Positions 3,458 through 43,060 are shown, numbered from the stretch's first letter. The stretch is DNA of 64,000 nucleotides from an uncultured Eubacteriales bacterium (GCA_964538085.1 CAZIDF010000001.1:96826-160825); one strand, 5' to 3'. Numbers and translations are program-made. Notes: generated by a model from the sequence alone, not told the origin.

Positions 3458-3672
3458 GGCCTACCTTTCATGTTATCGATTTGAATTATGCCCATATGAT
3501 AAATCAAAACCGTTACAAAGATACAGTTTTGTAAGCTGAAACTTCAGACCGATTTAGAATTATCATGCTTGTGGAATCGCTTTGAATAAAAAATTGCCTG
3601 TTGGTTATTAGACTGTTATCTAGTATCATAGGATTTTGCTCTAACACTGCTGTTAAGGGAAAGCCTGACAAC

Positions 3673-8586: not shown

Positions 8587-9837
8587 CTAGAACCGGAACA
8601 GGTTGTTACCCAGTTTTTTCTTCTCCTCGTTCCATCTTTTCACCAAATAGGGTTTTTCCTCTTCGAACACCCTGACGATCTTTTCAAAATATTCCTCGCA
8701 CTCCTTGATATCCATGTGAATGGTCTTATTCACGAAGGAGAGGATCCGGGAATGGTAAAACGGGATCATGGACTCTACGATCATTTGCTTCGGGATCTGG
8801 TTGTTACGGTAGGCAATGGCGAAATTGAACAGGATACGTGCCCAGAGATCGCTGCTGTAATAGAATTTTTCTTTGGGGATATTTTTTATTTTTTTGATTT
8901 CGGTAAATTCTTCATTGGGAAGGATATTTTTCCATACTTCCCCATACCGATCAAAACCTTGGACAAAACTAACGTAGAGGGCATCTGTATCCACAGAAAC
9001 TGGTGGAGGAGTCTCCATGGCTCCCAACCCGAATCCAAAAATGCTGCTCGGCCAGCTTTCTGATGTGTCTTTCCAGAAATATTCGAAGTCAATCATCAGC
9101 TCGAAAAAGGTCATGATCACCTGCTTGAACATCGGCCCCAGGTGTTTTGCCGGATCCTTGGCTCGATGAGATTTTGGGGAACCCAAGAAGGTTTGACAGA
9201 CCTTGAACCTGCGGGCGATGGCGACAGTGGTCATCCAGATATCGATCCCGAAATGAGCCACGTTTTCTGTCCAGGTTTTTTCGGACAGGAATGCTTGAGC
9301 CAGCCGTCTTGAAAAACCGAAATCTCCCCCGATGGGTTGTCTAACTCTAAGCCCGAAAAGGGTTCTCAAAAGCGGATAAGCGATGTGATTGGTGATGGAA
9401 CCATCGTATTTGTGGCGGATATAGATGGGAGTCACATAGTTGAAGCCTGCAAACAGGGGCTCCCCCAGGTATTGGATCCACTGGGGCGTTATGCTCTGAA
9501 GATCGGCATCCACGACAACGGCAGCTTTAGCCTCGAGCTCGACGACGGCCTCGAATAAATTCCTCAGGTTGTTCCCCTTTCCTCGAATATCCCCCGTTGT
9601 CGAAATGTAAATCTTGGGAACATCGGTGGGAGTGTTCAAAAAGGCTGTTTTTGTCCCATCCGGCGAATTGTTGTCAATATTGATGATAACGGATTTTTTA
9701 TCCGGAAAAAACTTGCACAATCCTTGACTGGCCATCTTGGTGGGATGAGAGATGGAATCAGCTTCATTAAAGGAAGGTATCCCCACGACAAAGTCGGCTT
9801 TTTTTACATGTTCAGGATTTTCGATAATCACATCCAT
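8587..9837 (-). CDS. GT-A fold glycosyltransferase, GT78-like (mannosylglycerate/glucosylglycerate synthase-like), paralog A
   Basis: VVGIPSFNE N-terminus and DADLQSITPQWI (DxD) motif. RQPIGGDFGFSRR and FGIDIWMTT blocks resemble those I recall from Rhodothermus mannosylglycerate synthase. Paralog at 41688..42926. Confidence 0.5.
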   Translation of the reverse strand: MDVIIENPEHVKKADFVVGIPSFNEADSISHPTKMASQGLCKFFPDKKSVIINIDNNSPDGTKTAFLNTPTDVPKIYISTTGDIRGKGNNLRNLFEAVVELEAKAAVVVDADLQSITPQWIQYLGEPLFAGFNYVTPIYIRHKYDGSITNHIAYPLLRTLFGLRVRQPIGGDFGFSRRLAQAFLSEKTWTENVAHFGIDIWMTTVAIARRFKVCQTFLGSPKSHRAKDPAKHLGPMFKQVIMTFFELMIDFEYFWKDTSESWPSSIFGFGLGAMETPPPVSVDTDALYVSFVQGFDRYGEVWKNILPNEEFTEIKKIKNIPKEKFYYSSDLWARILFNFAIAYRNNQIPKQMIVESMIPFYHSRILSFVNKTIHMDIKECEEYFEKIVRVFEEEKPYLVKRWNEEKKKLGNNLFRF

Positions 9838-9880: not shown

Positions 9881-10438
9881 TCAAGATTGTTGTTTCTGCG
9901 TAGCTTTTTTGTTCATATCCTTGGCGTGGTTGATCAATTCTGCCAAACGGTCCAGAATGATCCTCACTTTTATGTTAGGTAATTTTCGCTTCCCCGACTG
10001 TTGGGTTTGAAAATTTTTTTTCAGGAGCGTTTCGATACTCTCTTTGTCCATCCATTTGCACAAAAAGTCATCCTCGAAGAGTTCAGCTTTCAGCTCCTCA
10101 TATTCCTGACTCATCGCCAATATTTGAAATTCTTCCAGCAACTCATCTCGCCACTTCTGATAATCTTGAGAGGCATAGGAAGGGATAGGGCCCAGCATTT
10201 TTTTGGCATTTTTCATCGCGTTTTCGAAGAATCCTTCGGCATCCCGGAGCAAGTTTCTAGCTTTGTAATATTCAGCCGTATTGAAATCCCCCTCATCTTT
10301 CAACAGAGCCTGAAAGACATCGACAGACTTACTCAAATATTCCCAACACTTTGATGCTTTCTGATAGATGAGATTTTCTGTTCCCTGTTGCATGAAATTC
10401 TCCCGGCAAAAATCTTTAGGGACTGCCATTATATACAA
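9881..10438 (-). CDS. hypothetical protein
   Basis: 185-aa ORF, charged and helical, no recognisable domain. Which Met is the true start is uncertain. Confidence 0.4.
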   Translation of the reverse strand: MYIMAVPKDFCRENFMQQGTENLIYQKASKCWEYLSKSVDVFQALLKDEGDFNTAEYYKARNLLRDAEGFFENAMKNAKKMLGPIPSYASQDYQKWRDELLEEFQILAMSQEYEELKAELFEDDFLCKWMDKESIETLLKKNFQTQQSGKRKLPNIKVRIILDRLAELINHAKDMNKKATQKQQS

Positions 10439-18339: not shown

Positions 18340-19890
18340 TCAGGCTCCGAAATCGGACGTGAACGATTTAAGCCTTCTTGCTTGGCGAGAGTTTTTCAAG
18401 CATCTTAAAGCTTTCGCCTCGATCTGCCTGATCCTTTCACGTGTCACTTTGAATCGCTGTCCGACCTCTTCCAGCGTGTGCTCGTTTCCATCGCCCAATC
18501 CAAATCTCATTCTCAGGACCTCCGCTTCCCTGTGAGTGAGGGAATCCAGAGCGTAATCAATTTGCTCTTTCAGATTGCCAAGAATAACGGAATCAGGAGG
18601 AGAGGGAATTATCGTATCCTCTATAAAATCAGCGAGATAACTGTCATTCTCTTTCCCCACAGGAGCGTTGAGAGATACGGGCTCCTGGGAGCTTTTGATG
18701 ATTTGCCTTACCTTGTCTATAGGAAGATTCATTTTTTTGGCCACATCATCGCATGTGGGCTCTCTCCCCACTTCATTGATGAGTTCTTTTGTCAATTTAT
18801 GTAATTTATTTATCGTGTCTACCATATGGACAGGGATTCTAACCGTCCGGGCTTGGTCTGCAATGGCTCTTGTTATGGATTGCCTTATCCACCACGTTGC
18901 ATATGTCGAAAACTTGAATCCCTTCCTGTAATCGAATCTTTCCACAGCTTTCATCAAACCCATGTTCCCTTCCTGTAATAAATCTAGAAAATGCAGATTG
19001 TTCACTCTGTATTTCTTCGTGATGGAAACAACGAGTCTCAGATTCGCCACGATCAAATTTTTCTTAGCCCTATCTCTGATCGCTTCTCCCAAGGAGATGG
19101 CCTGGACTATTTCATTTAATTTGATTAGATCAAAACCGAGCTCGATCTGATGGATTCCTATCAACTCATCACATCCCTTGATTTTTCGATTCAGATCGAT
19201 CCGCGTGGTTTCATTTTTAACCTTTGTGTACAGCGTGTAAAATCCTTCCCTTTTTTTTCTCAATTTATCCAGAAAAAAGGCTCTATCCCGAAGTTCTGCA
19301 ATGATTTTCTCTTTTTGCACCGGAAGCAAATTGAGCTTTTTCATGGACTTAGCCAATTGGATTTTAAGTTGCTTTCTCTTGAGAAGGAATGACTCGTCAT
19401 ATGGGATTTTTTCTAATTTAAACCCAAAATTCCTTACCTCTTCAATTCCCTGGAATATCTCCTTGCTCCTCGCTTCGAAATTCCCGTCCTTAAGATTGTC
19501 AGAAAAATCGAAAAAGTCTGAGATTACCTCTGGATTTCTTCTAATATCTTCTTCAAAGGTGACGATTTTTCTCCAAGTCAACCGGGTTTCGAGCAGAGCG
19601 TCGTTGATGATGTTTTCCCCTCTCTCGATTTCTTTAGCGATGATGATTTCTTCCTTTCGTGAGAGAAGGGATACGCTGCCAATCTCCCGAAGATAGAGCT
19701 TCACAAGATCGGTCAATGACTCGAGCTTGTCGTCGGTGTCGTCATGCTTGACTTGTCTTTTCGATAGGGAACTATTTTCTATCTCATTCTTTTCCTCATC
19801 TTGCAGACATGAAAAATTATCATAATCATGATCATCGCCGAGATCATTCCGATCTATTGTTTCACAAATATTCAGCCGTATGTCATCCAT
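18340..19890 (-). CDS. rpoD: RNA polymerase primary sigma factor sigma-70
   Basis: Acidic region 1.1. Region 2 ([24 protein letters not shown]). Region 4 ([27 protein letters not shown]). Confidence 0.9.
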
Positions 19891-30003: not shown

Positions 30004-30819
30004 ATGAAGGATCAAATTATCGTTTTCACTGACCTTGACGGTACGCTTGTTGATTACCACACTTATTCCTATGAACAAGCCCTCCCAGCGCTGGTTGAGT
30101 TAAAAAAAAATGACATTCCTCTGATCATCTGCTCGAGCAAAACCCGGGCAGAAATAGAAAAATTTCGTTCAAGGCTGGACAACGACCATCCGTTTATCTC
30201 TGAAAACGGCGGGGCCATTTTTGTTCCTCTGGACTATTATGACTTCGAGATTCCTTATACTCGAAAAGATTTGAAGTATTGGATAATCGAGTTTGGCACG
30301 CCCTACCACAAAATCAGGGGAACATTGCAGAAAATACAATCTGAATTCCCCGATAAGGTAAGGGGATTCGGTGATATATCTGCCCAGGAAGTGGCAAACT
30401 TATGCGAGATTCCTTCGGATGAAGGCGTTCTGGCAAAAGAACGAGAATACGATGAACCTTTTCTCCTCAAAGACAAAACAATACTGGATAAAATTCGAGA
30501 GTTAGCCAAAGAAGATCATCTCCAAATCATTCAAGGAGGTCGGTTTTATCATCTCATCGGGGAAAATGACAAGGGGAAGGCTGTCTCCTATTTGACGGAT
30601 ATTACCAGGAGAGCTTATGACGATATCAAAACCATCGGCCTCGGGGATAGCCAGAACGATTTGCCCATGCTTCAAGTCGTTGATTTTCCTGTATTGGTCA
30701 AAAAACCGGATGGAAGCCATGCCCCTGACATAAACCTGGATAATCTTATCCGTTCGCCAGGCAAAGGTCCTGTGGGTTGGAATTTTTCTGTAATGGAGCT
30801 CCTGGATAAGCTGGTATAG
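30004..30819 (+). CDS. HAD-IIB hydrolase, mannosyl-3-phosphoglycerate phosphatase (MpgP/YedP) family
   Basis: FTDLDGTL motif I, SSKT motif II, GDSQND motif IV. Length and cap match the MPGP family (TIGR01486-like). Confidence 0.65.
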   Translation: MKDQIIVFTDLDGTLVDYHTYSYEQALPALVELKKNDIPLIICSSKTRAEIEKFRSRLDNDHPFISENGGAIFVPLDYYDFEIPYTRKDLKYWIIEFGTPYHKIRGTLQKIQSEFPDKVRGFGDISAQEVANLCEIPSDEGVLAKEREYDEPFLLKDKTILDKIRELAKEDHLQIIQGGRFYHLIGENDKGKAVSYLTDITRRAYDDIKTIGLGDSQNDLPMLQVVDFPVLVKKPDGSHAPDINLDNLIRSPGKGPVGWNFSVMELLDKLV

Positions 30820-30959
30820 TTTCTCACAAGCTCCATAATACAAATATCAGCCCGTATCATTCGACGATCCTGTTGGCTATATCTTCAATGGTCGCTTCAA
30901 CCATCCCCAAAAATCCCATTTATCACATACGCGGAAAAGGAGAGACCCAGGCGAGGAAG

Positions 30960-31159
30960 GGAAGCATTTCCAAATCCGTGATAATTTTAATATGGTCAGG
31001 GAAGCTGAAGAGGAAGTCATCCGGAGGCGAGCGGGCATGGTTCCTCGTAGAGGAGAGCGAGCCGAGGAACTAAGCGGAATTTCCTCGCTGGGGAAATTCA
31101 GCGGGCTGACGTTTCAGCTTGCCTGACTGTTTCTTTATCACGGATTTGGAAATGCTTAC
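30960..31159. mobile_element. MITE-like element, copy 2 (200 bp) with imperfect 25-bp terminal inverted repeats (TIRs) and a 9-bp flanking direct repeat
   Basis: Left end GGAAGCATTTCCAAATCCGTGATAA (30960-30984). Right end TTATCACGGATTTGGAAATGCTTAC (31135-31159). Flanking direct repeat GCGAGGAAG at 30951-30959 and 31160-31168. Confidence 0.45.
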
Positions 31160-31233
31160 GCGAGGAAGAAAATAGCTGATTTTTATTCGCGATTAATATA
31201 TAATCCAGGGTTTAAGTATGCTGTAATTATGCC

Positions 31234-32511
31234 ATGACAAAAATAGTCACCATCATTCTGGCGGGTGGTCAAGGGAAGCGGCTCTTTCCTCTAACGAAAA
31301 TGCGCAGCAAACCAGCCGTCCCGATTGCCGGCCGATTTCGGCTGATCGACATTCCGATCAGCAACTGTATCCATTCAGGGCTGAGAAAAATCTTCATTCT
31401 CACTCAATACAGCAGCGAATCTCTCCATCGTCATATCTTCATCACTTATCGCTTCGACAGTTTCACAAAAGACTTCGTCACCATTCTCTCCGCCCAACAA
31501 ACCCTCGAGAGCCCTGATTGGTACCAAGGAACAGCCGATGCAGTCCGTCAAAACCTGCGTTTTTTCCGTACTGAGGGAGACCTGGTGCTGGTTCTTTCAG
31601 GGGATCACCTGTACCGGATGGATTATCAAAAATTCATAAAATTTCACCTGGATAAAAAAGCCGATGTTAGCATAGCTGTTTATCCTGTCTTTTCCAGTCA
31701 AGCTCCGGAATTCGGCGTGATGAAAGTGAACAACCAAAGCCGGATCGTAGCCTTCCTCGAAAAGCCTAAAGATCCCTCTCAAATAGAGAGCATGAAAGTC
31801 CCGGAAGAGGTCTTTCACCAATTCCAGATAGATGCTGCCGGACGGACACACCTCGCCTCGATGGGAGTGTATATTTTCAAATGGGAAGTCCTCAAGAATC
31901 TGCTGGAAAAGTCTATCCACGAAGATTTCGGCAGGGAGGTTATCCCCTCTTCCATAGAACAATACAACGTGCGCGGCTACTTTTTTAACGATTACTGGGA
32001 GGATATCGGAACGATTCGCAATTTTTACGATGTTCACATGGACCTGACCCAGCCCTTGCCTCGGTTTAATTTTTATGATGAACAAAAACCGATCTTCAGC
32101 CATGCCCGCTTTCTCCCGGGATCGAAAATCTTATCCTCCCTTGTCCAAAACTCCATATTGTGCGAGGGCAGCATTATCAACAACTCGAAAATAAGCCATG
32201 CCATCATCGGAATCCGCTCTCGCATCGGAAACGACTCCCTGATCGAGCGTTCTGTCCTTATGGGAGCCGACTTTTTTGAATCGAAAGAAGAACTCGATAG
32301 GAATCTTAAAAAAAATATTCCCCGAATGGGAATCGGAGACAACTGTGATATCCAAAACGCGATCGTCGATAAAAACGCACGCATCGGAAATGGAGTCAAA
32401 CTCGTCAATGCGAGGAGAATAAATGAGGAGACTCAAGAAATGTATGTGATAAGAGACGGAATCATCGTTATCCCGAAAAACGCCATCATTCCAGATGGGA
32501 CTGTCATTTGA
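31234..32511 (+). CDS. glgC: glucose-1-phosphate adenylyltransferase
   Basis: N-terminal ILAGGQGKRLFPLT...PAVPIAG signature. Left-handed beta-helix C-terminus. Confidence 0.9.
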   Translation: MTKIVTIILAGGQGKRLFPLTKMRSKPAVPIAGRFRLIDIPISNCIHSGLRKIFILTQYSSESLHRHIFITYRFDSFTKDFVTILSAQQTLESPDWYQGTADAVRQNLRFFRTEGDLVLVLSGDHLYRMDYQKFIKFHLDKKADVSIAVYPVFSSQAPEFGVMKVNNQSRIVAFLEKPKDPSQIESMKVPEEVFHQFQIDAAGRTHLASMGVYIFKWEVLKNLLEKSIHEDFGREVIPSSIEQYNVRGYFFNDYWEDIGTIRNFYDVHMDLTQPLPRFNFYDEQKPIFSHARFLPGSKILSSLVQNSILCEGSIINNSKISHAIIGIRSRIGNDSLIERSVLMGADFFESKEELDRNLKKNIPRMGIGDNCDIQNAIVDKNARIGNGVKLVNARRINEETQEMYVIRDGIIVIPKNAIIPDGTVI

Positions 32512-32528
32512 TTTTATAGGAGACACTC

Positions 32529-33554
32529 ATGCCTGAACTTCGTTATGATCCGCTAGAACATCGATGGGTGATCATCGCCACCGAAAGAGCAGCCAGGCCT
32601 TCCGATCTGGCTGATAAGACAAAATACAACCACGTCAAAGTCTGTCCCTTCTGTGAAGGTCACGAAACATCCACCCCCCCAGAGATATGGGCCTTCAGAG
32701 ATCCGAAAACAGCTCCCAACACACCGGGGTGGCAGGTCCGGGTCGTATCCAATAAATTTCCCGCTTTGAAAATCGAATCCGAAGGCAAAAGGATAGGAGT
32801 GGGTTATTACGACATGATCGAGGGAGCGGGTGCCCATGAAGTGATCATCGAAACCCCTCAGCATGACATTAGCCTGGCAGACCTCCCTCCTAGCCACATC
32901 AAGTGGGTCCTCCTCGCCTACCGGGAAAGGATAAAGGACCTGTATAAAGACCCGCGGTTCAGGTATGCGCTTGTTTTCAAAAATCACGGGCAAAGGGCTG
33001 GAGCCTCTCTTGCTCACCCCCATTCCCAATTGATCACAACACCGATCGTTCCGCGCAATGTATTCATGAAGCTAGATGTCGCAAAGAAACATTATGCGAC
33101 CAAGGAGAGATGTCTGATCTGTGATCTGATTCAACAGGAAATCAGCACAGGATCAAGAATAATCAGCCAGGATAACGGCTTCGTCGCTTTTGCTCCTTAC
33201 GCTTCCCGTTTCCCGTTCGAAGTGTTCATTGCACCGATAGAGCACAATCACAACTACGAAGACATTACCGATGACGACCTAGAGAGATTTTCCCATCTGC
33301 TCAAAGACATTCTTTCAAAGCTTAAAAGTGTGCTGAACGACCCGCCTTATAATTTTGTTCTCAACACATCCCCCAACACCAATGCCAAACCCAAGCTTCC
33401 GGATCAATGGGCAACCCTTAAGTACGATTATCACTGGCATATCGATATCATCCCCAGGCTCGTCCGCATCGCCGGATTCGAATGGGGAAGCGGATTCTAC
33501 ATCAATCCCAGTGTCCCGGAGGAAGCCGCCAAATATTTGCGAGAGGAAGGCTGA
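32529..33554 (+). CDS. GalT-like nucleotidyltransferase (HIT superfamily branch III; possible ADP-glucose phosphorylase / Gal-1-P uridylyltransferase)
   Basis: CPFCEGHE zinc site. HPHSQL His-Pro-His active-site motif. Lies 18 nt downstream of glgC. Confidence 0.7.
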   Translation: MPELRYDPLEHRWVIIATERAARPSDLADKTKYNHVKVCPFCEGHETSTPPEIWAFRDPKTAPNTPGWQVRVVSNKFPALKIESEGKRIGVGYYDMIEGAGAHEVIIETPQHDISLADLPPSHIKWVLLAYRERIKDLYKDPRFRYALVFKNHGQRAGASLAHPHSQLITTPIVPRNVFMKLDVAKKHYATKERCLICDLIQQEISTGSRIISQDNGFVAFAPYASRFPFEVFIAPIEHNHNYEDITDDDLERFSHLLKDILSKLKSVLNDPPYNFVLNTSPNTNAKPKLPDQWATLKYDYHWHIDIIPRLVRIAGFEWGSGFYINPSVPEEAAKYLREEG

Positions 33555-33558
33555 AAGC

Positions 33559-35058
33559 TCATTCAACACGGTCAGATAATTCTGTGAGTTCGGCAAATTT
33601 CCCGGCTTCATGGGAAAACAATTGATCTGGCAAAAGCCGCCACCGCCAGTTTCCTATTTTCGTCCCGGGCAGGTTCATCCTCGCTTCCTCCCCCAACCCC
33701 AAAAGATCCTGCATGGGAACGATAAAGGTATCGGCAGCGGACTTCATGCCCATTTCGATGAACTCCCGATGGACGTCTTGTTCCGTGATTCGATGCCCTA
33801 AATATCGAAACAACCTAGTCTTATCCTGCGTCTTGGCCTCCGTTGTGAACCACCCCTTTACGGTGTTGTTATCATGAGTCCCGGTATAAACCACACAATT
33901 TTTTTTAAAAGTATGGGGCAAATAAGGATGGTCTGGATTGTCATCGCCGAAAGCGAAAAGAAGAACCTTCATTCCGGGAAAGCCAAACCGTTCTCTGACT
34001 TCTTCCACATCCGGAGTGATCGTCCCGAGGTCTTCCGCCACGATGGGCAGAGTGGAAAATCTCTGGTTGAGTCGACCGAAGAAATCCATCGCCTCTGCTT
34101 TTACCCATGTTCCATTTACAGCCGTTGTCTCCCCGGAAGGGACTTCCCAATAGCCGACAAAACCCCTGAAGTGGTCTATCCTGACCACATCGAACAATTT
34201 TAAATTGCGTTCCAGTCTTTGTATCCACCAGCCGTAACCGGTTCGCTTCAATTCATCCCATCGGTAAAGAGGATTGCCCCAGAGTTGTCCGGTTTTGCTG
34301 AAATAATCAGGAGGGACACCAGCGACGACGAAGGGTTCCCTGTTTGGGCCGAGTTTGAACAACTCGGGATGGGCCCAAACGTCCACGCTATCATGAACGA
34401 CATAGATGGGGATATCTCCGAGGATCAAGACTCCCTTCCGGTTGCAGTAGTCTCTCAGTCTATTCCATTGCCTATAAAACACATGTTGAAGAAATTTCGC
34501 CTTTGCTATCTCCTCATGCAGTTCTGATCTCAAAATTCTCAAAGCACCTGATTCCCTGTCCCTAATACCGGAGGGCCACTCGCTCCAAACCTTATTTCGA
34601 AATCGGGATTTCAGGGCCGCAAACAGGGCGTGCTCTTCAAGCCAGAATGCATTTTCGGCACAAAATTTCTCGAAATCCTCCATTTCCCCGGTTTTTTTAA
34701 AGCGTTCATAAGCCACATCAAAATTCTTTTTTCTTGAGAGGATAATACCATCGAAATCGACCCGTTCTTCGGGAAAATCAGGAAGGGACTCTAAATCCTT
34801 GGGCATAAGCAACCCTTCTTGAATCAACAACTCCAGGCTTATGAGAAGCGGATTCGCAGCGAAGGCCGAATAACTGTGATAAGGGGAATTATCGAATACA
34901 GAGTCTGTGGGATTGACAGGAAGAATCTGCCAGTATTTCTGCTTCGCTGCAGCGAGAAAATCGGCAAAGGCATAGGAGGCAGGACCCAAATCCCCGATAC
35001 CATAAGGGGAGGCCAAAGATGTGATGTGAAGAAGAACACCGCTTCCTCTCTCTCTCAT
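33559..35058 (-). CDS. malQ: 4-alpha-glucanotransferase (amylomaltase, GH77)
   Basis: N-terminal GVLLHITSL...GIGDLG signature. GH77 catalytic blocks. Confidence 0.9.
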   Translation of the reverse strand: MRERGSGVLLHITSLASPYGIGDLGPASYAFADFLAAAKQKYWQILPVNPTDSVFDNSPYHSYSAFAANPLLISLELLIQEGLLMPKDLESLPDFPEERVDFDGIILSRKKNFDVAYERFKKTGEMEDFEKFCAENAFWLEEHALFAALKSRFRNKVWSEWPSGIRDRESGALRILRSELHEEIAKAKFLQHVFYRQWNRLRDYCNRKGVLILGDIPIYVVHDSVDVWAHPELFKLGPNREPFVVAGVPPDYFSKTGQLWGNPLYRWDELKRTGYGWWIQRLERNLKLFDVVRIDHFRGFVGYWEVPSGETTAVNGTWVKAEAMDFFGRLNQRFSTLPIVAEDLGTITPDVEEVRERFGFPGMKVLLFAFGDDNPDHPYLPHTFKKNCVVYTGTHDNNTVKGWFTTEAKTQDKTRLFRYLGHRITEQDVHREFIEMGMKSAADTFIVPMQDLLGLGEEARMNLPGTKIGNWRWRLLPDQLFSHEAGKFAELTELSDRVE

Positions 35059-35087
35059 CTATTCTATCCTCAGGACGGAGCCATTTT

Positions 35088-37514
35088 TCACCAGCATTTC
35101 ACATGAAGCTGGCGACCGATATCTTTCATCAATTCAACCCAATCTTCAGCACGGGATTCTCCTTCATTTCTCCTTTTCCCCATTTCGTTTTTCAGTCGCT
35201 TGCAAAGGAGAAAATAAATATTCTGACTTTTCCAGAGATCGAGATCCAGCGGAAAATCTCTCAACAACAGGAGTAACGCATCTATTTTTTTGAGCAAAAT
35301 TACATTCTGTGGGTCGGCCTGAAGTTTGGCCATTATTTTGTTGAGTCTGAAGCTTGAAATATATCCCAAAAGAACCCGGTCAGGATGAAGATCCCACTTT
35401 TTAAATTCCTGAACTATTTTTTTTATTTTATCTAAATCTAATTCATCTCCCTCCATGGATTTCCGAAAGTCAGCATCCAAAATAAACTCTACAGAAGTCG
35501 CAAATGCTTTCGGAAGAGGAATATTGTTTTCTTTCAGAGCGGACATGATGGAATAATGGTTTTCAAAAACTTGGCGCAGGGATGCCTCCGCATCCGCCAA
35601 TGCGGTTTTCAGGATTCGATTCAGAATTTCTCTTTTTTTGTCTCTCAAAAGATGCCAGAGGGAATAATTGTGATCCCCGAAGTGAAGGTCCATCAACCGG
35701 ATGATTTGAAGAACATCCCCTGTTTGAAAGGCACTTCTTATCTCTTCCTGCATAGAGGAAAAAGTCCGTTCATCCGAAAACCGCCTTGCCCCTCCGACAA
35801 GGTTTTGATCTCCGTAATGCAGAACAGCATAACTGATCGTCTCCTCTTCCCAAGTGATCTCTGAGCGGATTTTGGCCTTTCCCAGCGCAAGCCTTTGCGA
35901 TGCGGTCTCCATGTGATCGACGAACTGGCTTTGGGCCGTATATTCCCCTATTCGAATGGTTTCGGGATAATCCTCGAACAAAGAAGACACGGCATAATGC
36001 ACGCCAATCCTTTGGGTGTCCAGAGGCGCCGGCTTAACGAGCTGTTCATAGACCTTGGCTCCATTCCCGAATGCCGCTTGATTGCTCGGAGCATTTTCGA
36101 TCCTTTTGATGTAGCCAGGTTCGAGATCCTTGCCGTCAATCTCTTTTGCGAGCTGAATGGCCCGCGCTGCATACTTCATCACTTGTACTGCTTCGATCCC
36201 CGAGATTTCATCGAAAAACCACCCGCAACTGGTGAACATGAGCAGGACATTCCGTTCCAACTCTAAAAGCTTGAGTATTTTTGTTTTTTCCTCATGGCTT
36301 GAGTCGCGTTTCAGGTGCCTGGAGAAATAGGCCTGGACATTCTCTTTCGAGCGATCTAAAACCACGCGTATGTAATCATCTCTTGCTTCCCAGGGATCTT
36401 TGAAAAAAATCGTCATTCCCTTTTCGTAAATGGGAGCGATTTGATCCCGGAGCCAATCCATGGCTTCCCGCAGCGCTCCCCGCCATTTTTGATTCCAATC
36501 CGGATGTTGACCCGTGTTGCATCCGCAATCGCTCCGCCATCTCTCCACTCCATGCACGCAGCTCCATGAGCTATTCTCAACGAATCCCACCTCGTATTCG
36601 GGAGGATACATCTCCAGATATTCGCCAAAAACGGTGAGGGAAGTTTTTCCGTCTGAATCGATTTTATCCAGGCAATAGGCAAGCGCCATTTCTCCAAAAC
36701 GGTGGTGATGCCCATAGGATTCCCCGTCGGTCGCGATATGGACCAACTGGATTTCTCCCTGTTCTGGAGAAAAGGCTTGCAGCAGCCTTCGAGAAAACAG
36801 TTCTCCGTTTTCCAGAAGGTCACCGAATGCGATGTCGTACGAAATGGCCCCATCATAGAAGAAAACGGCGATTTTTCCGCCAGACGGGAGCAAAACCCAA
36901 TAGGGCTTTTTCGGATCGACTTTCCCCCCATGGACATCGATCCAATCTTTCTGACCGATTTTTCGGACTCGAAGGGCCTGCTGTGGGGAAAGAATCGTGA
37001 AGCGAATCCCATGATGTGCCAAGATATTCAGGGTTTCACTATCAACGGCTGTTTCAGGAAGCCACATGCCTTCTGGCTCTCTTTTAAAGCGGTACTTGAA
37101 ATCTTGGATTCCCCATAATACTTGGGTGTGCTTGTCCCGGGAATAAGCGAGGGGCATGATCATGTGATTGTAAACCTGGGCAATGGCTGCCCCGTGACCT
37201 GAAAACCTATCCTGGCTCTGTTTGTCAGCCTCTAAAATTGCGAGGTAAATTTCCGGTTCTTGCTTTTCCAGCCAGGAGAACAGTGTCGGCCCGAAATTGA
37301 AACTTATCTTGGCATAGTTGTTCACGATCTTGACGATGTCTTTACCATCATCCAGAATCCTGGCCGCTGAGTTGGGGGCATAACATTCTCCTGAAATCCG
37401 TTCATTCCAATCGTGGAAGGGATGAGCAGAATCTTGGATTTCGACTTCGCCAAGCCATGGGTTTTCTCTAGGAGGCTGGTAAAAATGACCGTGAATACAA
37501 ATATAGGGCTTCAT
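35088..37514 (-). CDS. glycoside hydrolase family 57 protein with C-terminal DUF3536
   Basis: N-terminal HGHFYQPPRENPW signature. HxATDGESYGHHH catalytic region. About 300-aa C-terminal extension. Confidence 0.8.
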   Translation of the reverse strand: MKPYICIHGHFYQPPRENPWLGEVEIQDSAHPFHDWNERISGECYAPNSAARILDDGKDIVKIVNNYAKISFNFGPTLFSWLEKQEPEIYLAILEADKQSQDRFSGHGAAIAQVYNHMIMPLAYSRDKHTQVLWGIQDFKYRFKREPEGMWLPETAVDSETLNILAHHGIRFTILSPQQALRVRKIGQKDWIDVHGGKVDPKKPYWVLLPSGGKIAVFFYDGAISYDIAFGDLLENGELFSRRLLQAFSPEQGEIQLVHIATDGESYGHHHRFGEMALAYCLDKIDSDGKTSLTVFGEYLEMYPPEYEVGFVENSSWSCVHGVERWRSDCGCNTGQHPDWNQKWRGALREAMDWLRDQIAPIYEKGMTIFFKDPWEARDDYIRVVLDRSKENVQAYFSRHLKRDSSHEEKTKILKLLELERNVLLMFTSCGWFFDEISGIEAVQVMKYAARAIQLAKEIDGKDLEPGYIKRIENAPSNQAAFGNGAKVYEQLVKPAPLDTQRIGVHYAVSSLFEDYPETIRIGEYTAQSQFVDHMETASQRLALGKAKIRSEITWEEETISYAVLHYGDQNLVGGARRFSDERTFSSMQEEIRSAFQTGDVLQIIRLMDLHFGDHNYSLWHLLRDKKREILNRILKTALADAEASLRQVFENHYSIMSALKENNIPLPKAFATSVEFILDADFRKSMEGDELDLDKIKKIVQEFKKWDLHPDRVLLGYISSFRLNKIMAKLQADPQNVILLKKIDALLLLLRDFPLDLDLWKSQNIYFLLCKRLKNEMGKRRNEGESRAEDWVELMKDIGRQLHVKCW

Positions 37515-37548
37515 GAATCAGGATAAATTTTGAATCGGAGAGGAATAT

Positions 37549-37773
37549 TTATTTATGTTGTTTTCCCTGCTCTCCCTCGGAAAGAGAGACAAAAGTCTTC
37601 GCTGCCTTGGTCTGGTACTCGATCTTATCTTCACGGGCCAACCAGCCCAGTCCTTGGTAGACGATCGACGATTTTTCATTCAACAGCTTAGGAAGTTGCG
37701 ATACGTTGACTTCTCCTTGCTTTTTTAAAATCTTCCAGATATTTCCTGCGGTAACACCGATATTTTCTTTCAT
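37549..37773 (-). CDS. small winged-helix domain protein
   Basis: 74-aa ORF with wHTH-like pattern (NVSQLPKLLNEKSSIVYQGLGWLAREDKI). Confidence 0.4.
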   Translation of the reverse strand: MKENIGVTAGNIWKILKKQGEVNVSQLPKLLNEKSSIVYQGLGWLAREDKIEYQTKAAKTFVSLSEGEQGKQHK

Positions 37774-37866
37774 TGAAATCTCCCTATTTTTTCGTGATGA
37801 ACCATACTGTGAACGTGCTTATTGTATCACACCTAAACGCCGACAAGATAGCGATTATTTAGGCCC

Positions 37867-38194
37867 CTCGGCATCTTTATTTCCGTGATAAATTTGGCTT
37901 TTGGGGATGGTTGAAGCGACCATTGAGGATTTAGCCTTCACGAGCCGCTCTTCGAGGGAATCTGACGAAGTCAGACGGTGAGGATGTATTGAGCACGACT
38001 ATTCTAAAGGATAAGAGATCCGGGCAAGCAGGGGAACAGAGGCTAGAGAGGTAGAGATTGGGAGTTAACGGGCGGAGTTCCGGAGCCGCCGAGAAGAGTG
38101 GTGAGGGAATGGCGTGAAAAATCTGCACGGGAGCAAAACCATTCCTAAAGGCCAATATAAAGCATTTTGATATCACGGAAATAAGGATGCTTCC
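37867..38194. mobile_element. MITE-like element, copy 1 (328 bp) with about 20-bp TIRs and a 9-bp flanking direct repeat
   Basis: Left GCATCTTTATTTCCGTGATA (37871-37890). Right TATCACGGAAATAAGGATGC (38171-38190), a 19/20 inverted match. Flanking TTTAGGCCC at 37858-37866 and 38195-38203. The TIR core is related to copy 2. Confidence 0.45.
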
Positions 38195-38214
38195 TTTAGG
38201 CCCTTGGCGTTTGT

Positions 38215-40137
38215 TCAATCCCTTTTGAAGATAAGCACGCTCAATGGAGGGACGGTGATGGATATCGAATGATCTCTGCCGTGCCGTGGAATAGGGTCGG
38301 ATTCCACACCGCCTAGATTGCCCTGGCCGCTTCCCCCATAATCCTTTGCATCGCTGTTCATCTCTTCTCGCCAGAATCCACTGGCTCGCACACCGATCCT
38401 GTATTTTGTATGAACGGAAGGAGTAAAATTGCAAACGACAAGGACTCCATTTTCCGCATCCTTCCCTTTTCGTGAGAAACACACGACACTCTTTTCCCAA
38501 TCGCTGAAGTCGATCCAATCGAACCCGCCCTGTTCGAAATCGTACTCGTAAAGCGCCGGCGTGATTCTGTAGAAATGATTGAGATCTCTGACCCACTTTT
38601 GCACTCCTTGATGGGGAGGGTATTTCAAAAGGTGCCAGTCCAAGCTCTCTTCGTGATTCCACTCTCCCCACTGGCCGAACTCCCCTCCCATAAACAACAG
38701 TTTCTTCCCTGGATGAGTGTACATAAAGCCAAACAAAAGCTTCAGACTGGCGAATTTCTGCCAGTCATCCCCAGGCATTTTGCTCAAGAGAGAGCTCTTT
38801 CCATGAACAACTTCATCATGAGAGAGGGGAAGGACAAAATTCTCGGAGAACGCATACCAGATGCTGAAGGTCAACTGGTTATGGTGATGTTTGCGATACA
38901 CCGGATCTCTGGACATATATTCCAGGATGTCGTGCATCCAGCCCATATTCCACTTCATGCCGAAGCCTAGACCGCCCAAATAAGGAGGGCGAGTCACCAT
39001 CGGCCAAGCTGTGGATTCCTCGGCTACTGTTTGAATATCCGGGAACATCCGATAAGCCGCTTCATTCAACTTTTTCAGAAAAGAGATCGCTTCGATGTTC
39101 TCTCGGCCTCCGTACTTATTCGGGATCCACTCTCCTTCCTTTCTCGAATAGTCCAAATAGAGCATGGAGGCAACAGCATCCATCCGTAGCCCGTCGATAT
39201 GATATTTATCCAGCCAGAAGATCGCGCTGCTTATCAGGAAATTCTGCACTTCATTCCGGCCATAATTGAAGATATAACTTTTCCAATCGGGATGGAAACC
39301 CTTCTTAGGATCCTCATGTTCGTAGAGGTGGGTTCCATCGAGAAACACCAATCCGTGCTCATCTGACGGGAAATGGGAGGGAACCCAATCCAGGATCACG
39401 CCGATGCCATTCTGGTGTAATTGATCGATCATATACATAAAATCCTGGGGTGTGCCGTACCGGCTTGTCGGGGCGAAATACCCGACTGTCTGATAACCCC
39501 AGGAACCATAAAAAGGATGCTCCGTAACCGGAAGCAGTTCCACATGGGTGAATCCCATTTCTTTCACATAATCCACAAGAAGGTAGGCAATTTCACGATA
39601 ATTCAGGAATGGGTTGTTCTCCGAGGGATCTCTTCGCCATGAACCCAAATGAACCTCATATACAGCATGAGGAGCTTGAAGGTCATTTTGTTTTTGTCTG
39701 TTCGCCATCCATTCCTCATCCTGCCACGGGTACTCCAAATCGCAGATGACAGTTGCTGTTCGGGGAGATAATTCCCAAAAATAGCCGCATGGATCGCCTT
39801 TGTCCACCTTGTACTTGCGGGATTTTGATTCGATATGGAACTTGTAGAGAGAGCCGATTCCGATATCGGGAATAAATCCTTCCCAGATTCCCGATCCATC
39901 CCATCTGACCGCCAAAGGATGCGAATCAGGTTTCCATCCGTTGAAATCTCCGACAACGGAAACGTATTTGGCATTGGGGGCCCAGAGCGCAAAGTGAAAC
40001 CCTCTCTTTTCTTCAACAGTCAAAGAATGCGCCCCCATCTTCTCGTAGAGTTTGAAGAAATTCCCTTCTTTAAAAAGGTGTATATCATATTCGCTGAGCA
40101 GAGTCGGGCCATGGATGACATTTTTTTTATTCGACAC
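38215..40137 (-). CDS. glgB: 1,4-alpha-glucan branching enzyme (GH13)
   Basis: GH13 catalytic blocks (GFRMDAV..., EESTAWP). CBM48-like N-terminus. Confidence 0.9.
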
Positions 40138-40196: not shown

Positions 40197-41657
40197 TTAG
40201 ACCTTAGACAAGGCTTTTTTATAGACTTCCTCGAATTTATGAGCAGACTTTTGCCAGGAGAAATCTTGCTTCATCGCATTTTTAACGAGTTTTGCCCACA
40301 ATCGCTTATTTCTGTATAAATAGACAGCCCTTTTTACCGCTTTTACCAATTCTTTGGAGGAATAGGCATTGAATTTAAACCCAGTTCCTTTTCCTGTTTC
40401 GGGATCGAACTCTTTGATTGTATCGTCCAATCCTCCTGTTGCCCTGACGATTGGGATGGTGCCATACTTGAGGCTGTACATCTGGTTCAACCCGCAGGGT
40501 TCGTATTTGGATGGCATGAGGAACATGTCAGAACCGGCTTCGATTTTGTGGGCGAGGGCATTATCGAAAGCGATCTTCACACCAAGATGGCCCGGATTTT
40601 TCTTCGCCAATGCGGCGAACTGTTTCTCATATTTCGAATCGCCGGTTCCCAAAATGACCAAACAAAGGTTCAATTCCAAGAGTTGGTCCATCGCTTCGGC
40701 CAAAATGTCGAAACCTTTCTGATCCGCCAATCTTGAAATTATTCCGATAATGGGGAATTCATCCGATCCCTTCAATCCATAAATTTGTTTCAGTTCGTCC
40801 TTACAATTTTTCTTTCCCGATGTGTCTTTTTCATCGAAGTTAGAGGCGATGTGGGGATCGTTCACCGGATTCCACAGTGAATAGTCCACACCGTTCAAGA
40901 TCCCGTACAAGTCTTCACGTCTGTTTTTAAGCACACCCTCCATCCCATATCCATATTCAGAGGTTTGGATCTCCTGTGCGTACTTCACGCTCACCGTGGT
41001 GATGGAGTCGGAAAATACGATCCCGCCTTTCATGAAGTTCATCTTCCCATAGTATTCCAGGCCACCTATAGAAAACAATTCCATCGGCAATTCGCTTATC
41101 GACATGGTTTCCTTCGGAAATACACCCTGATAAGCGAGGTTATGGATGGTGAACACCGACCGCATATTCTTGAAATAGGGATCCTTTTTGTACAGGCTTT
41201 TCAAATACACCGGGACAAGACTCGTTTGCCAATCATGACAGTGGATCACATTCGGTTCGAATCCGATCGACCGGCTCAATTCCACTATACTACGGCTGAA
41301 AAAAATAAATCTCTCAGGATTATCGAAATAGTCCCCTTCGGACGTGCCATACAGATTGGTGCGGTCAAAATACTCATCGCGCTGGATAAAGTAGACAGGG
41401 ACACCTCCCGACATCGTGGTTGTGTAAACCCGTGCGGTCATTTGTTGTCCCTTAAAAGGCAGGGTAAGGAATTGATCATGCGGTTTTAAATCATGGTCTC
41501 CTTCTTTTACAGATCTGTACAGGGGCATGACCACGGCCACGTGATGGCCCAACGCTGCAAGAGCAGCGGGCAAAGATCCGGAAACATCGGCCAATCCACC
41601 GGTCTTGGCAAAAGGAGCGACTTCTGAGGAAGCGAACAGGATCCTTAAATCACTCAT
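40197..41657 (-). CDS. glgA: glycogen synthase (GT5)
   Basis: N-terminal SEVAPFAKTGGLADV (KTGGL) motif. Length 486 aa. Confidence 0.9.
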   Translation of the reverse strand: MSDLRILFASSEVAPFAKTGGLADVSGSLPAALAALGHHVAVVMPLYRSVKEGDHDLKPHDQFLTLPFKGQQMTARVYTTTMSGGVPVYFIQRDEYFDRTNLYGTSEGDYFDNPERFIFFSRSIVELSRSIGFEPNVIHCHDWQTSLVPVYLKSLYKKDPYFKNMRSVFTIHNLAYQGVFPKETMSISELPMELFSIGGLEYYGKMNFMKGGIVFSDSITTVSVKYAQEIQTSEYGYGMEGVLKNRREDLYGILNGVDYSLWNPVNDPHIASNFDEKDTSGKKNCKDELKQIYGLKGSDEFPIIGIISRLADQKGFDILAEAMDQLLELNLCLVILGTGDSKYEKQFAALAKKNPGHLGVKIAFDNALAHKIEAGSDMFLMPSKYEPCGLNQMYSLKYGTIPIVRATGGLDDTIKEFDPETGKGTGFKFNAYSSKELVKAVKRAVYLYRNKRLWAKLVKNAMKQDFSWQKSAHKFEEVYKKALSKV

Positions 41658-41687: not shown

Positions 41688-42926
41688 TCAATCCCAGATC
41701 TTCAATAGGTAGGGTTTCAAGGTCTCGAAAGTCTGGGCTTGCTCCTCGATGATTATCTCAGCATCCTGGGTCGTCATGTCCTTGGTCCGATTGATGAATG
41801 ATGCGACACGGGCATAATATAACGGGCGCATGATGTCCACAAGATTTTTTCTGTCTTTTTTCCATCGGTGGAATGTCACAGCAAAATCGTAGACGATTTT
41901 CGTCCAATCTTCGGTGGGCATGAGAAAATTTTCGATTTTTCTCTTTTTCGTCAATCCCTTGAGAATGACGAAGCTTTGGGGATTGATGATCTTTTCCCAG
42001 AGAACGGAGAGGTTTTTAAATCCTTCGTTAAAGTTTTCTATCATTCCCGGTAAATCAACAGAGAATGCTTCGGGCTCTTTCTGGATGGACTCGCCATACG
42101 TCGGGATCAGTTCGCTCGTCGTTACTCCCTTCCACTTCTCTGAATTACTTTCCATCAACTCGAAAATGGGATAAACCACCTGCCTGAACATCGGCCCCAA
42201 GTTTTCTAAAGGATCTTTGACATCGTGAATTTTTGTGCCCAGGTATGCCTGGCATATGGATTTGTCCGAAACGATCGCCGAAGTCGTCATCCAGATGTCT
42301 ATGCCAAACCTAGCGATATCGGTCATCCAGATTTCAGGCCCACAGGAATAATAAAAATCGACCATCTTTTCAGAAAGGCCGAAATCGCCCCCTATAGGCT
42401 GACGGACTCTTTTGCCATAAAGAGCCCGTGTCATGTTATAGGCGATATTGTTGGTAATGGTAGCGTCGTATTTGTAACGGGAATAAACGGGCGCGACAAA
42501 ATCATGGCCATGGGATAACACAGGATCAGCAAGGGCTTTCACCCATTCCGGTGTGATGCTGCGGAGGTCTGCGTCGAACAACAAACAGACTTTGGCTTTT
42601 AAAAATGAGGCGGCTTCAAAAATCATCCGCAAAGCACTTCCTTTGCCGGGAATCCCCCTATAGATGGTGACGATTTTTTCGACATAGGGATGAACCACTT
42701 TCTCCTTAGCTGCCTCTCTTGTATCGTCCGTGGATCCCCCATCTGAGATGATGATGACAGTCCGTAAATCCTTGTAATGCCGGGAGATCCCCTCGCTCAC
42801 GGTATCGACAACATATTCGATGGTGGAATCATTGTTGAAGCAGGGAATTCCCACCACCAAGTCCGCTCGATCCATCTTTTCGAAACGCCTGTTGGCCCAA
42901 GGTCTCATCGCTGTGTGGAATTTCAT
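41688..42926 (-). CDS. GT-A fold glycosyltransferase, GT78-like (mannosylglycerate/glucosylglycerate synthase-like), paralog B
   Basis: VVGIPCFNN and FDADLRSITPEWV (DxD) motifs. RQPIGGDFGLSEK and FGIDIWMTT blocks. Immediately upstream of glgA. Start set at MKFHTAM (42926). Confidence 0.5.
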   Translation of the reverse strand: MKFHTAMRPWANRRFEKMDRADLVVGIPCFNNDSTIEYVVDTVSEGISRHYKDLRTVIIISDGGSTDDTREAAKEKVVHPYVEKIVTIYRGIPGKGSALRMIFEAASFLKAKVCLLFDADLRSITPEWVKALADPVLSHGHDFVAPVYSRYKYDATITNNIAYNMTRALYGKRVRQPIGGDFGLSEKMVDFYYSCGPEIWMTDIARFGIDIWMTTSAIVSDKSICQAYLGTKIHDVKDPLENLGPMFRQVVYPIFELMESNSEKWKGVTTSELIPTYGESIQKEPEAFSVDLPGMIENFNEGFKNLSVLWEKIINPQSFVILKGLTKKRKIENFLMPTEDWTKIVYDFAVTFHRWKKDRKNLVDIMRPLYYARVASFINRTKDMTTQDAEIIIEEQAQTFETLKPYLLKIWD

Positions 42927-43060
42927 TCTGCCTATTGTAATACGAATCGACTGCTGTTGACAGGAATATTTGTATTGAGTCGATATTTGCTTTATTGCAA
43001 TAAGCAGGGTATATCTGATAAAAATCATCCGGGCACAACGCTCTGGAAGGAGGAAAAAAC

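Follow-up and report, generated by a model that had tools for sequence, protein, structure and literature searches.

The stretch of DNA analysed here, referred to as the window, comprises 64,000 nucleotides from an uncultured Eubacteriales bacterium (GCA_964538085.1, CAZIDF010000001.1:96826-160825). Within its glycogen gene cluster, a 328-bp sequence element is located 3' of glgB and 5' of a unit formed by genes for a winged helix-turn-helix (wHTH) protein, a GH57 protein and MalQ. The element is bordered by a 9-bp direct repeat, belongs to a dispersed family and almost certainly is a transposable element of the miniature inverted-repeat type (MITE). For the whole set of observations the favored explanation, to which a probability of about 0.8 is assigned, is that of a promoter-targeting MITE moved by a Mutator-like transposase. 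Coordinates of the element, of its parts and of the surrounding features are reported in Table 1.

The original prediction, made from the sequence of the window, had described a MITE-like element of 328 bp, delimited by two arms (37871-37890 and 38171-38190) forming an inverted repeat, with a 9-bp direct repeat located 4 nt outside each of them. The length and the direct repeat were both found as described, and the two arms are complementary at 19 of 20 positions (95%). The 20-nt ends, 4 nt inside the direct repeat, are present too, but the true repeats are longer. Alignment of 20 full copies of the family showed that the copy in the window is alignable from end to end with the 19 others, and that the terminal inverted repeats extend over 24 nt, 4 nt more than proposed, with consensus G[G/T]AAGCATCTCTATTTCCGTGATA. 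The two 9-mers therefore directly abut the 328-bp element. On the promoter side, the repeat departs from the consensus GCTT[A/C]C in its outermost 4 nt. The duplicated sequence is perfectly conserved between the two sides and occurs exactly twice in the 64 kb.

Table 1. Features of the 328-bp element, of the glgC promoter region and of the surrounding genes. Positions are counted from the first nucleotide of the window; the strand is left empty for features reported without orientation.
Feature	Position	Strand	Remarks
GT2 glycosyltransferase	41688-43028	-	
glgA	40197-41657	-	
glgB	38215-40137	-	
Target-site duplication, copy 1	38195-38203		TTTAGGCCC on + strand, abuts repeat end
Terminal inverted repeat, glgB side	38171-38194	-	GGAAGCATCCTTATTTCCGTGATA, fits family consensus
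Internal GC-rich hairpin	38068-38087		GGCGGAGTTCCGGAGCCGCC, in conserved block of family alignment
Subterminal arm	37885-37943	-	most conserved family block; 28-nt exact core at 37899-37926, TCAATGGTCGCTTCAACCATCCCCAAAA
Terminal inverted repeat, promoter side	37867-37890	-	TATCACGGAAATAAAGATGCCGAG
Complete element copy, 328 bp, almost certainly a MITE	37867-38194	-	conserved 28-nt motif reads 5' to 3' on minus strand; based on full-length identity to copies in metagenome-assembled genomes
Target-site duplication, copy 2	37858-37866		TTTAGGCCC on + strand
Extended -10 of the wHTH-GH57-malQ operon	37821-37829	-	TGaTACAAT, conserved in L059 and L060
DUF2582 wHTH protein	37549-37773	-	74 aa, first gene after targeted promoter; Pfam scan
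GH57/DUF3536	35088-37514	-	
malQ	33559-35058	-	
GalT-like gene		+	follows glgC
glgC	31234-32511	+	
-10 hexamer of glgC	31199-31204		TATAAT, 39 nt from end of 200-bp element
Target-site duplication of 200-bp element	30951-30959 and 31160-31168		GCGAGGAAG, perfect
Second MITE, 200 bp	30960-31159	+	repeats GGAAGCATTTCCAAATCCGTGATAA, related to those of 328-bp element; interior unrelated
Decayed right-end remnant, family of 328-bp element	30861-30950	+	local alignment to family consensus
HAD hydrolase	30004-30819	+	
Primary sigma-70 factor, RpoD-type	18340-19890	-	regions 1.2, 2, 3 and 4

The structure of the element was evaluated both on the single copy and on the family. Folded as single-stranded DNA, the window copy forms one long hairpin (z = -3.5), and the internal GC-rich hairpin mentioned in the original prediction is present in this copy. 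In the consensus fold, obtained from the 20-copy alignment, pairing runs past the terminal repeats: the larger part of the subterminal arm at 37885-37943 is base-paired to its counterpart on the other side, near 38119-38153, and the arms of the resulting palindrome are about 75 nt long each. The core of the family holds alternative hairpin modules, and covariation is restricted to the terminal repeats and to one swapped hairpin module. No coding capacity is present: with differences of 12 and 19 nt between length variants, no consistent reading frame is left across the family. The sole open reading frame (ORF) running across the element (37931-38671, minus strand), whose overlap with the segment had been reported earlier, also overlaps the 3' end of glgB in another frame and is probably not a gene.

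The family was recognised starting from a repeat search of the window, in which 37885-37943 was found to match 30868-30926 of the opposite strand over 59 nt, including an exact core of 28 nt. This match was considered as a possible operator or promoter of the glycogen operons, and rejected as such, the motif being the subterminal arm of a dispersed repeat. Other members were searched by using an exact 20-mer taken from the 28-nt core, in one genome per species. The search returned 53 loci, 52 of which are related and located in five Aminicenantes-type metagenome-assembled genomes (MAGs). The copy numbers of single assemblies are lower bounds, since an exact 20-mer was required: at least 19 loci are found in DAOVBT01, at least 7 in DAOWCB01 and at least 3 in the complete chromosome CP070750, all three from Candidatus Aminicenantes, plus at least 21 in CAYPGQ01 and at least 2 in CAYFWF01, both labelled 'uncultured Eubacteriales'. 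The remaining locus (L030, from a Robiginitomaculum MAG) was discarded as a family copy: it features neither an element nor flanking similarity, and one chance match was expected. The identity of full copies to that of the window is 75-89% over the full length. Most of them measure 314-338 nt; one copy reaches 414 nt, and deletion variants range in size between 97 and 246 nt.

The repeat family is common to MAGs labelled 'uncultured Eubacteriales' (CAYPGQ01 and CAYFWF01; L006, L011 and L012 are among their contigs) and to Candidatus Aminicenantes MAGs. Orthologous flanks in CAYPGQ01 are 92-98% identical to those of the Aminicenantes MAGs; judging from this orthologous flanking DNA, the 'Eubacteriales' label of CAYPGQ01 is probably wrong. 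An identical wHTH protein is encoded on five metagenome contigs, which represent the same population as the window; three of the five cross the spacer, are identical to the window and show the element in a single orientation. The other two, which are short-read contigs (L004 and L005, at position 1), stop exactly at the 28-nt core, because the repeat breaks assemblies. Near many of the MAG copies, a recurring motif, approximately GCCTGGATTATTCACGAGCCTAG, was observed (flanks of L014, L034, L037, L038, L041, L051 and L019). With three mismatches or fewer, the window contains no match to this motif, which could represent a further repeat or a site of regulation.

Evidence of insertion was obtained from both the flanks of the copies and the sites lacking them. 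The 9 nt located outside each end were compared in 28 full copies: the two flanks match at all nine positions in 4 copies, at eight or more in 10 and at seven or more in 13, to be compared with a frequency of 0.66% at the last threshold for mismatched flank pairs, used as null. The signal is confined to register 0, where the mean number of matches is 5.7, vs 2.5-3.0 when the flanks are shifted by 1-3 nt. The pair of TTTAGGCCC sequences is weak evidence when taken alone, as two or more matches are found in 9 of 100 shuffles; the family-wide comparison is what makes it strong.

The alternative indicated in the original prediction, that the segment is ancestral in orthologous spacers, is contradicted by the two closest relatives recovered, L059 and L060, which keep the glgB-wHTH-GH57 gene order without the element. 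Their glgB-wHTH spacers measure 229 and 158 nt, respectively, vs 441 nt in the window. An empty site was reconstructed by subtracting from the window the element and one 9-mer, and the sequence of L060 aligns through the resulting junction (...CCTAAA-AAT..CTATCTTG..GCGT..TACAAT). No copy of the element was found among 80 loci from relatives. With GH57 proteins 71% identical in amino acid sequence, L059 and L060 are fairly distant, and the empty sites do not correspond to a within-species polymorphism. Dispersal in many copies, duplications recurring in the family and empty sites in relatives all support the earlier proposal of a MITE with a 9-bp target-site duplication.

Copies of the family are located at a fixed distance from promoters. 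In order to evaluate spacing, 80 flanks were aligned at the element ends and read outwards. T, T and G occur at offsets 16, 17 and 18 in 48, 43 and 42 of them, respectively, and a TAnnnT pattern is found at offsets 39-44. Hexamers matching TTGACA at five or six positions are found 11 times at offset 16 and 4 times at offset 17, vs 0-2 times, typically 0 or 1, elsewhere. Similarly, -10-like hexamers are concentrated at offsets 37-41, with 13 at offset 39. When orthologous duplicates were dropped, 72 flanks remained, on which promoters were called at 8/12 matches or better. The -35 falls at offset 15 in 4 flanks, at offset 16 in 15 and at offset 17 in 5, and at any other offset in about 1.3 flanks on average; 20 of the 72 non-redundant flanks (28%) contain a promoter whose -35 lies at offsets 15-17, with a sharp peak at 16. 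The signal is found at both ends of the element (right 13/41, left 7/31), one copy having promoters at both, and co-oriented ORFs begin shortly past many of the promoter-bearing ends.

Both elements of the window obey the spacing of the family: the right end of the 328-bp copy lies at offset 40 from the -10 hexamer of the wHTH-GH57-malQ operon, and the end of a second, 200-bp element lies at offset 39 from that of glgC. Since the window encodes a primary sigma-70 factor, promoters of the sigma-70 type are expected in this organism. In the same window, two paralogous genes for glycosyltransferases similar to mannosylglycerate synthase (8587-9837 and 41688-43028, both on the minus strand) share DNA stretches 72-76% identical.

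The 200-bp element, located upstream of glgC, had been regarded as kin to the 328-bp one on the basis of its ends. The relationship was confirmed by the common TTATCACGGAWWT core, for which 6 matches were found vs 0.55 expected, and the interiors of the two elements do differ, as had been pointed out. The decayed remnant located in front of it is related to the 328-bp element itself: its alignment to the family consensus covers 30861-30943 with two small indels, and includes the 28-nt exact match. By projection of the consensus, the old end of the remnant would fall at about 30950, directly against the GCGAGGAAG duplication, which suggests two successive insertions into the same 9-bp target at the glgC promoter. 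Three insertions are thus found on the two promoters of one glycogen cluster of about 7 kb (30861-38203), the rest of the 64 kb having none. Such clustering could be due to local hopping, to promoters of unusual attractiveness or to chance. The 4-nt longer repeats, the family remnant near 30900 and the fixed distance from promoters are all additions to the original prediction.

The homologous glgC-promoter sequence of L059, GAGGAGGAAAACAGCTGATT, has no repeat end in front of it, over the 16 nt available upstream. In the glgC leader of the same relative (about 10335-10346, minus strand), the sequence AAGCATTTCCAA is identical to the first 12 nt of the repeat of the 200-bp element after the leading GG; it could be either a solo repeat remnant or a coincidence. 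The interior of the 200-bp element is a palindromic module, also found alone, without terminal repeats. Fragments of it are located at 1988-2034, between convergent genes, and at 3505-3551, in a divergent spacer, and a 135-nt copy, 88% identical, is present in L022 (6777-6910). The module may be a separate small repeat, captured by the 200-bp MITE or nested in it.

Sister MAGs carry elements at the same orthologous promoters (L010/L025, L017/L044/L050, L032/L043, L041/L054). Here the flanks are 92-98% identical and the elements 78-84%, and some pairs feature different module variants. At one promoter, the element of L017 is oriented opposite to those of L044 and L050; in some pairs, such as L044 and L050, divergence is much stronger in the 9 nt beside the element than in the remaining flank. 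Re-insertion at the same target, exchange between copies or carried-over junction bases are possible origins of these differences.

A course of events is proposed on these bases. A non-autonomous DNA transposon of 328 bp, which encodes no protein and in which 24-nt repeats continue into imperfect palindromic arms, each about 75 nt long, on the two sides of a conserved non-coding core, would have entered the glgB-wHTH spacer, duplicating 9 bp of target, TTTAGGCCC. Its landing would not have been random: elements of this type would insert, in either orientation, 16-17 bp upstream of a -35 position of the sigma-70 type. The duplicated target would correspond to about -51 to -43 from the transcription start and the core promoter would remain intact, so that the insertion was presumably near-neutral for the wHTH-GH57-malQ promoter. 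Mobilisation would have been provided in trans by a prokaryotic Mutator-like DDE transposase, either of the ISKra4 group or of the related ISLre2/TnGBS type. Assignment of the enzyme to the ISKra4/ISLre2 Mutator-like type, which is based on matching hallmarks, is likely, although with less confidence than the identification of the element as a MITE. It is proposed because the family agrees with published elements in its repeats, 24 nt long and of the form 5'-G...C-3', in its 9-bp duplication, in its offset of 16-17 and in being inserted in both orientations. To our knowledge, a promoter 'ruler' of 16-17 bp upstream of the -35 is found, among bacterial transposases, only for TnGBS, ISLre2 and the ISKra4 group. 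In Mutator-like DDE transposases an N1-N2 signature motif is linked to the targeting of promoters.

In prokaryotic Mutator-like elements the repeats measure 18-39 bp and have C as terminal base, and the direct repeats are 8-9 bp long (Guerillot et al. 2014, PMC3942029). In the TnGBS/ISLre2 and ISKra4-group lineages insertion occurs 15-17 (13-17) bp upstream of the sigma-A -35, with a peak at 16, the published criterion being a promoter located 13-17 bp from the repeat-genome junction in more than 20% of the insertions (PMC3942029). Asymmetric repeats lead to insertion in one orientation, near-perfect repeats, as in the ISKra4 group and ISLbu1, to insertion in both; contact with promoter-bound factors has been proposed, by analogy with Ty3 (PMC3942029). 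Yeast Ty3 similarly relies on promoter-bound factors to insert at a fixed distance from transcription starts; it is, however, a eukaryotic long terminal repeat retroelement, whose integrase targets RNA polymerase III promoters, unrelated in sequence and in mobilisation chemistry.

Among these lineages, the ISKra4 group (p-MULT 4, e.g. ISAcce1, ISKra4 and ISCasp2/3) resembles the family in its near-perfect repeats of about 18-31 bp ending in C, its 9-bp direct repeats (Table S1 rows) and its insertion 13-17 bp upstream of the -35, with promoters at either end. Its members differ in being autonomous, 1.4-2 kb long and provided with a transposase of 440-550 aa, whereas the element described here is gene-less and 328 bp long; in addition, the host phyla listed for p-MULT 4 in PMC3942029 do not include Aminicenantes. 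ISAcce1 is one of 13 promoter-targeting elements of the group, with a 9-bp direct repeat (Table S1, PMC3942029), and its end, GGGTGCATTTAATTTCCGCGAACC, resembles the repeat sequence GGAAGCATCTCTATTTCCGTGATA, the two agreeing at about 18 of 27 positions if one gap is introduced. ISLre2/TnGBS elements (p-MULT 3) share insertion 15-17 bp upstream of the -35, peaking at 16, direct repeats of 8-9 bp and the terminal C; ISLbu1, of the ISLre2 family, has perfect 24-bp repeats and inserts in both orientations. Most of them, by contrast, insert in one orientation, with the right repeat beside the promoter. They are almost confined to Firmicutes, TnGBS are conjugative elements of tens of kb, and their ends (GACAGAG..., GAACGTG...) are unlike the repeat of the 328-bp element.

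As to the MITE side of the proposal, classical families such as the Correia elements (CREE) of Neisseria, RUP, MITEAba12 and QMITE2 of Coxiella are likewise short, non-coding, multi-copy and mostly intergenic, with terminal inverted repeats, target duplications and folding into long hairpins. QMITE2 has repeats of 23-29 bp and duplications of 7-9 bp (PMC10969869). Correia elements differ in carrying promoters of their own, whereas the Aminicenantes family adjoins resident ones. The word MITE does not occur in PMC3942029. The terms Mutator, IS256 and ISLre2 are all absent from a review of prokaryotic MITEs published in 2024, which describes no Mutator-like parentage for them (PMC10969869).

Several results weigh against the proposal of a promoter-targeting MITE moved by a Mutator-like enzyme. 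Pfam and domain scans detected no transposase domain in 20 proteins of the window, and no pair of repeats 0.7-3 kb apart was found in the 53 MAG loci (about 300 kb). No match was obtained in the DNA of the window and of the MAG loci by tblastn with N-terminal fragments of four ISKra4-group transposases (Table S1), and a blastn comparison against 72,556 plasmids yielded no autonomous partner, only one irrelevant 37-nt match. The likeness to the ISAcce1 end, counted by eye, is weak and suggestive only. The terminal motif, GTAAGC, is similar to the GTAA ends of IS66-family elements too. As to promoters, in 13 of the 28 full copies neither flank has one that can be recognised at the canonical offset; possible reasons are decay, weakness of the promoters or rearrangement between copies. 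The promoter targeted in the window has a poor -35 at the canonical place, relies on its extended -10 and was not called by a simple promoter scan.

A different transposase might have moved the MITE, of either the IS66/ISBst12 type, with GTAA ends and 8-bp duplications, or the IS256 type, Mutator-like but random in its insertions; in both cases proximity to promoters would reflect the survival of harmless insertions. Many copies do begin with GTAAGC, and the ends of ISDge4, an IS66-family element of the ISBst12 group, begin with GTGAC/GTAAC, its direct repeat being of 8 bp (PMC12898284); moreover, the failure to find a transposase partner in the window, the MAG loci or the plasmid records leaves room for such enzymes. 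About half of the Aminicenantes-family copies, however, begin with GG rather than GT, and the duplication of the family is of 9 bp, not of 8 as in ISDge4. Duplications in the IS66 family measure 8-9 bp. An IS66-type gene was not found. We know of no report of promoter targeting or promoter-distance specificity by IS66 elements, a point on which no search was made. Selection against harmful insertions would not generate a peak one nucleotide wide, at offset 16, on both ends of the element, and IS256-type elements show no positional enrichment of promoters (PMC3942029). Movement by enzymes of these types is thus considered unlikely.

Two further explanations dispense with transposition altogether. 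The segment may be a cis-regulatory region, ancestral and conserved, or else a structured non-coding RNA, common to the promoters of glgC and of wHTH-GH57-malQ in the glycogen cluster; its repeated TTATCACGG cores might be bound by the winged-helix protein. The two glycogen operons, 7 kb apart, do carry related sequences, oriented alike with respect to the genes downstream, and the element is strongly structured, with an interior well conserved between genomes. Such a region would hardly be missing from relatives with the same gene order, or be found upstream of many other loci in five MAGs, and the confinement of covariation described above does not fit it. No Rfam family was found in the whole window at the gathering threshold, permissive thresholds giving only weak microRNA and small RNA matches at chance level, and a scan for tRNA and tmRNA was negative for the segment; this explanation is judged very improbable. 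The least credible of all is an inverton, in which the 20-24-nt repeats would be recombinase sites around a 280-bp segment, whose flipping controls the downstream operon. Its layout would be appropriate, as inverted repeats are found on both sides of a segment of a few hundred bp that lies immediately upstream of an operon, and the orientation of L017, opposite to that of L044 and L050 at one orthologous promoter, would be in its favor. Inversion, on the other hand, produces no 9-bp target duplications, yet the copies have them, nor does it account for the presence of dozens of dispersed copies or for the relatives' empty sites. All three independent metagenome contigs crossing the spacer have the same orientation, no recombinase gene adjoins the element (window protein scan), and a simple scan of 37400-38400 placed no sigma-70 promoter inside it; a simple scan of the same interval for intrinsic terminators was also negative for the element. 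Opposite orientations are also expected of a promoter-targeting transposon free in its orientation, and the lack of matching flanks in L044 suggests a rearrangement. A guide RNA of the IS200/IS605 type and an IS110 bridge RNA were rejected as well, as the 328-bp element has terminal inverted repeats and target duplications. IS200/IS605 and IS110 elements are not known to have either.

MITEs are common, and the single copy found in the glgB-wHTH spacer is ordinary. What lends moderate interest to the family is that it represents, in an uncultured phylum, a lineage which is non-autonomous and targets promoters. A promoter-distance specificity which is rare would be extended to a non-autonomous element and to an uncultured Aminicenantes lineage. 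For annotation, the repeat is relevant in that it breaks short-read assemblies and generates spurious ORFs. At the wHTH-GH57-malQ and glgC promoters, native upstream DNA has been lost beyond about -51, which could matter for the regulation of glycogen metabolism. The elements also pinpoint promoters in genomes for which transcript data are missing, and the stacked insertions and variant elements at orthologous sites constitute a natural data set on the way in which promoters are read by a DDE transposase. A more speculative reading, which seems rather doubtful at present, is that the family is the first described MITE lineage of the promoter-targeting Mutator-like transposons, and that it is more than a parasite, its strongly conserved arms and core having been co-opted as a portable upstream module; located near -51 at many promoters, including both promoters of the glycogen cluster, the module would have the role of an insulator, a terminator or a regulator site. 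If this were true, each intact copy would mark a promoter to the nucleotide, providing a natural promoter map for uncultured organisms.

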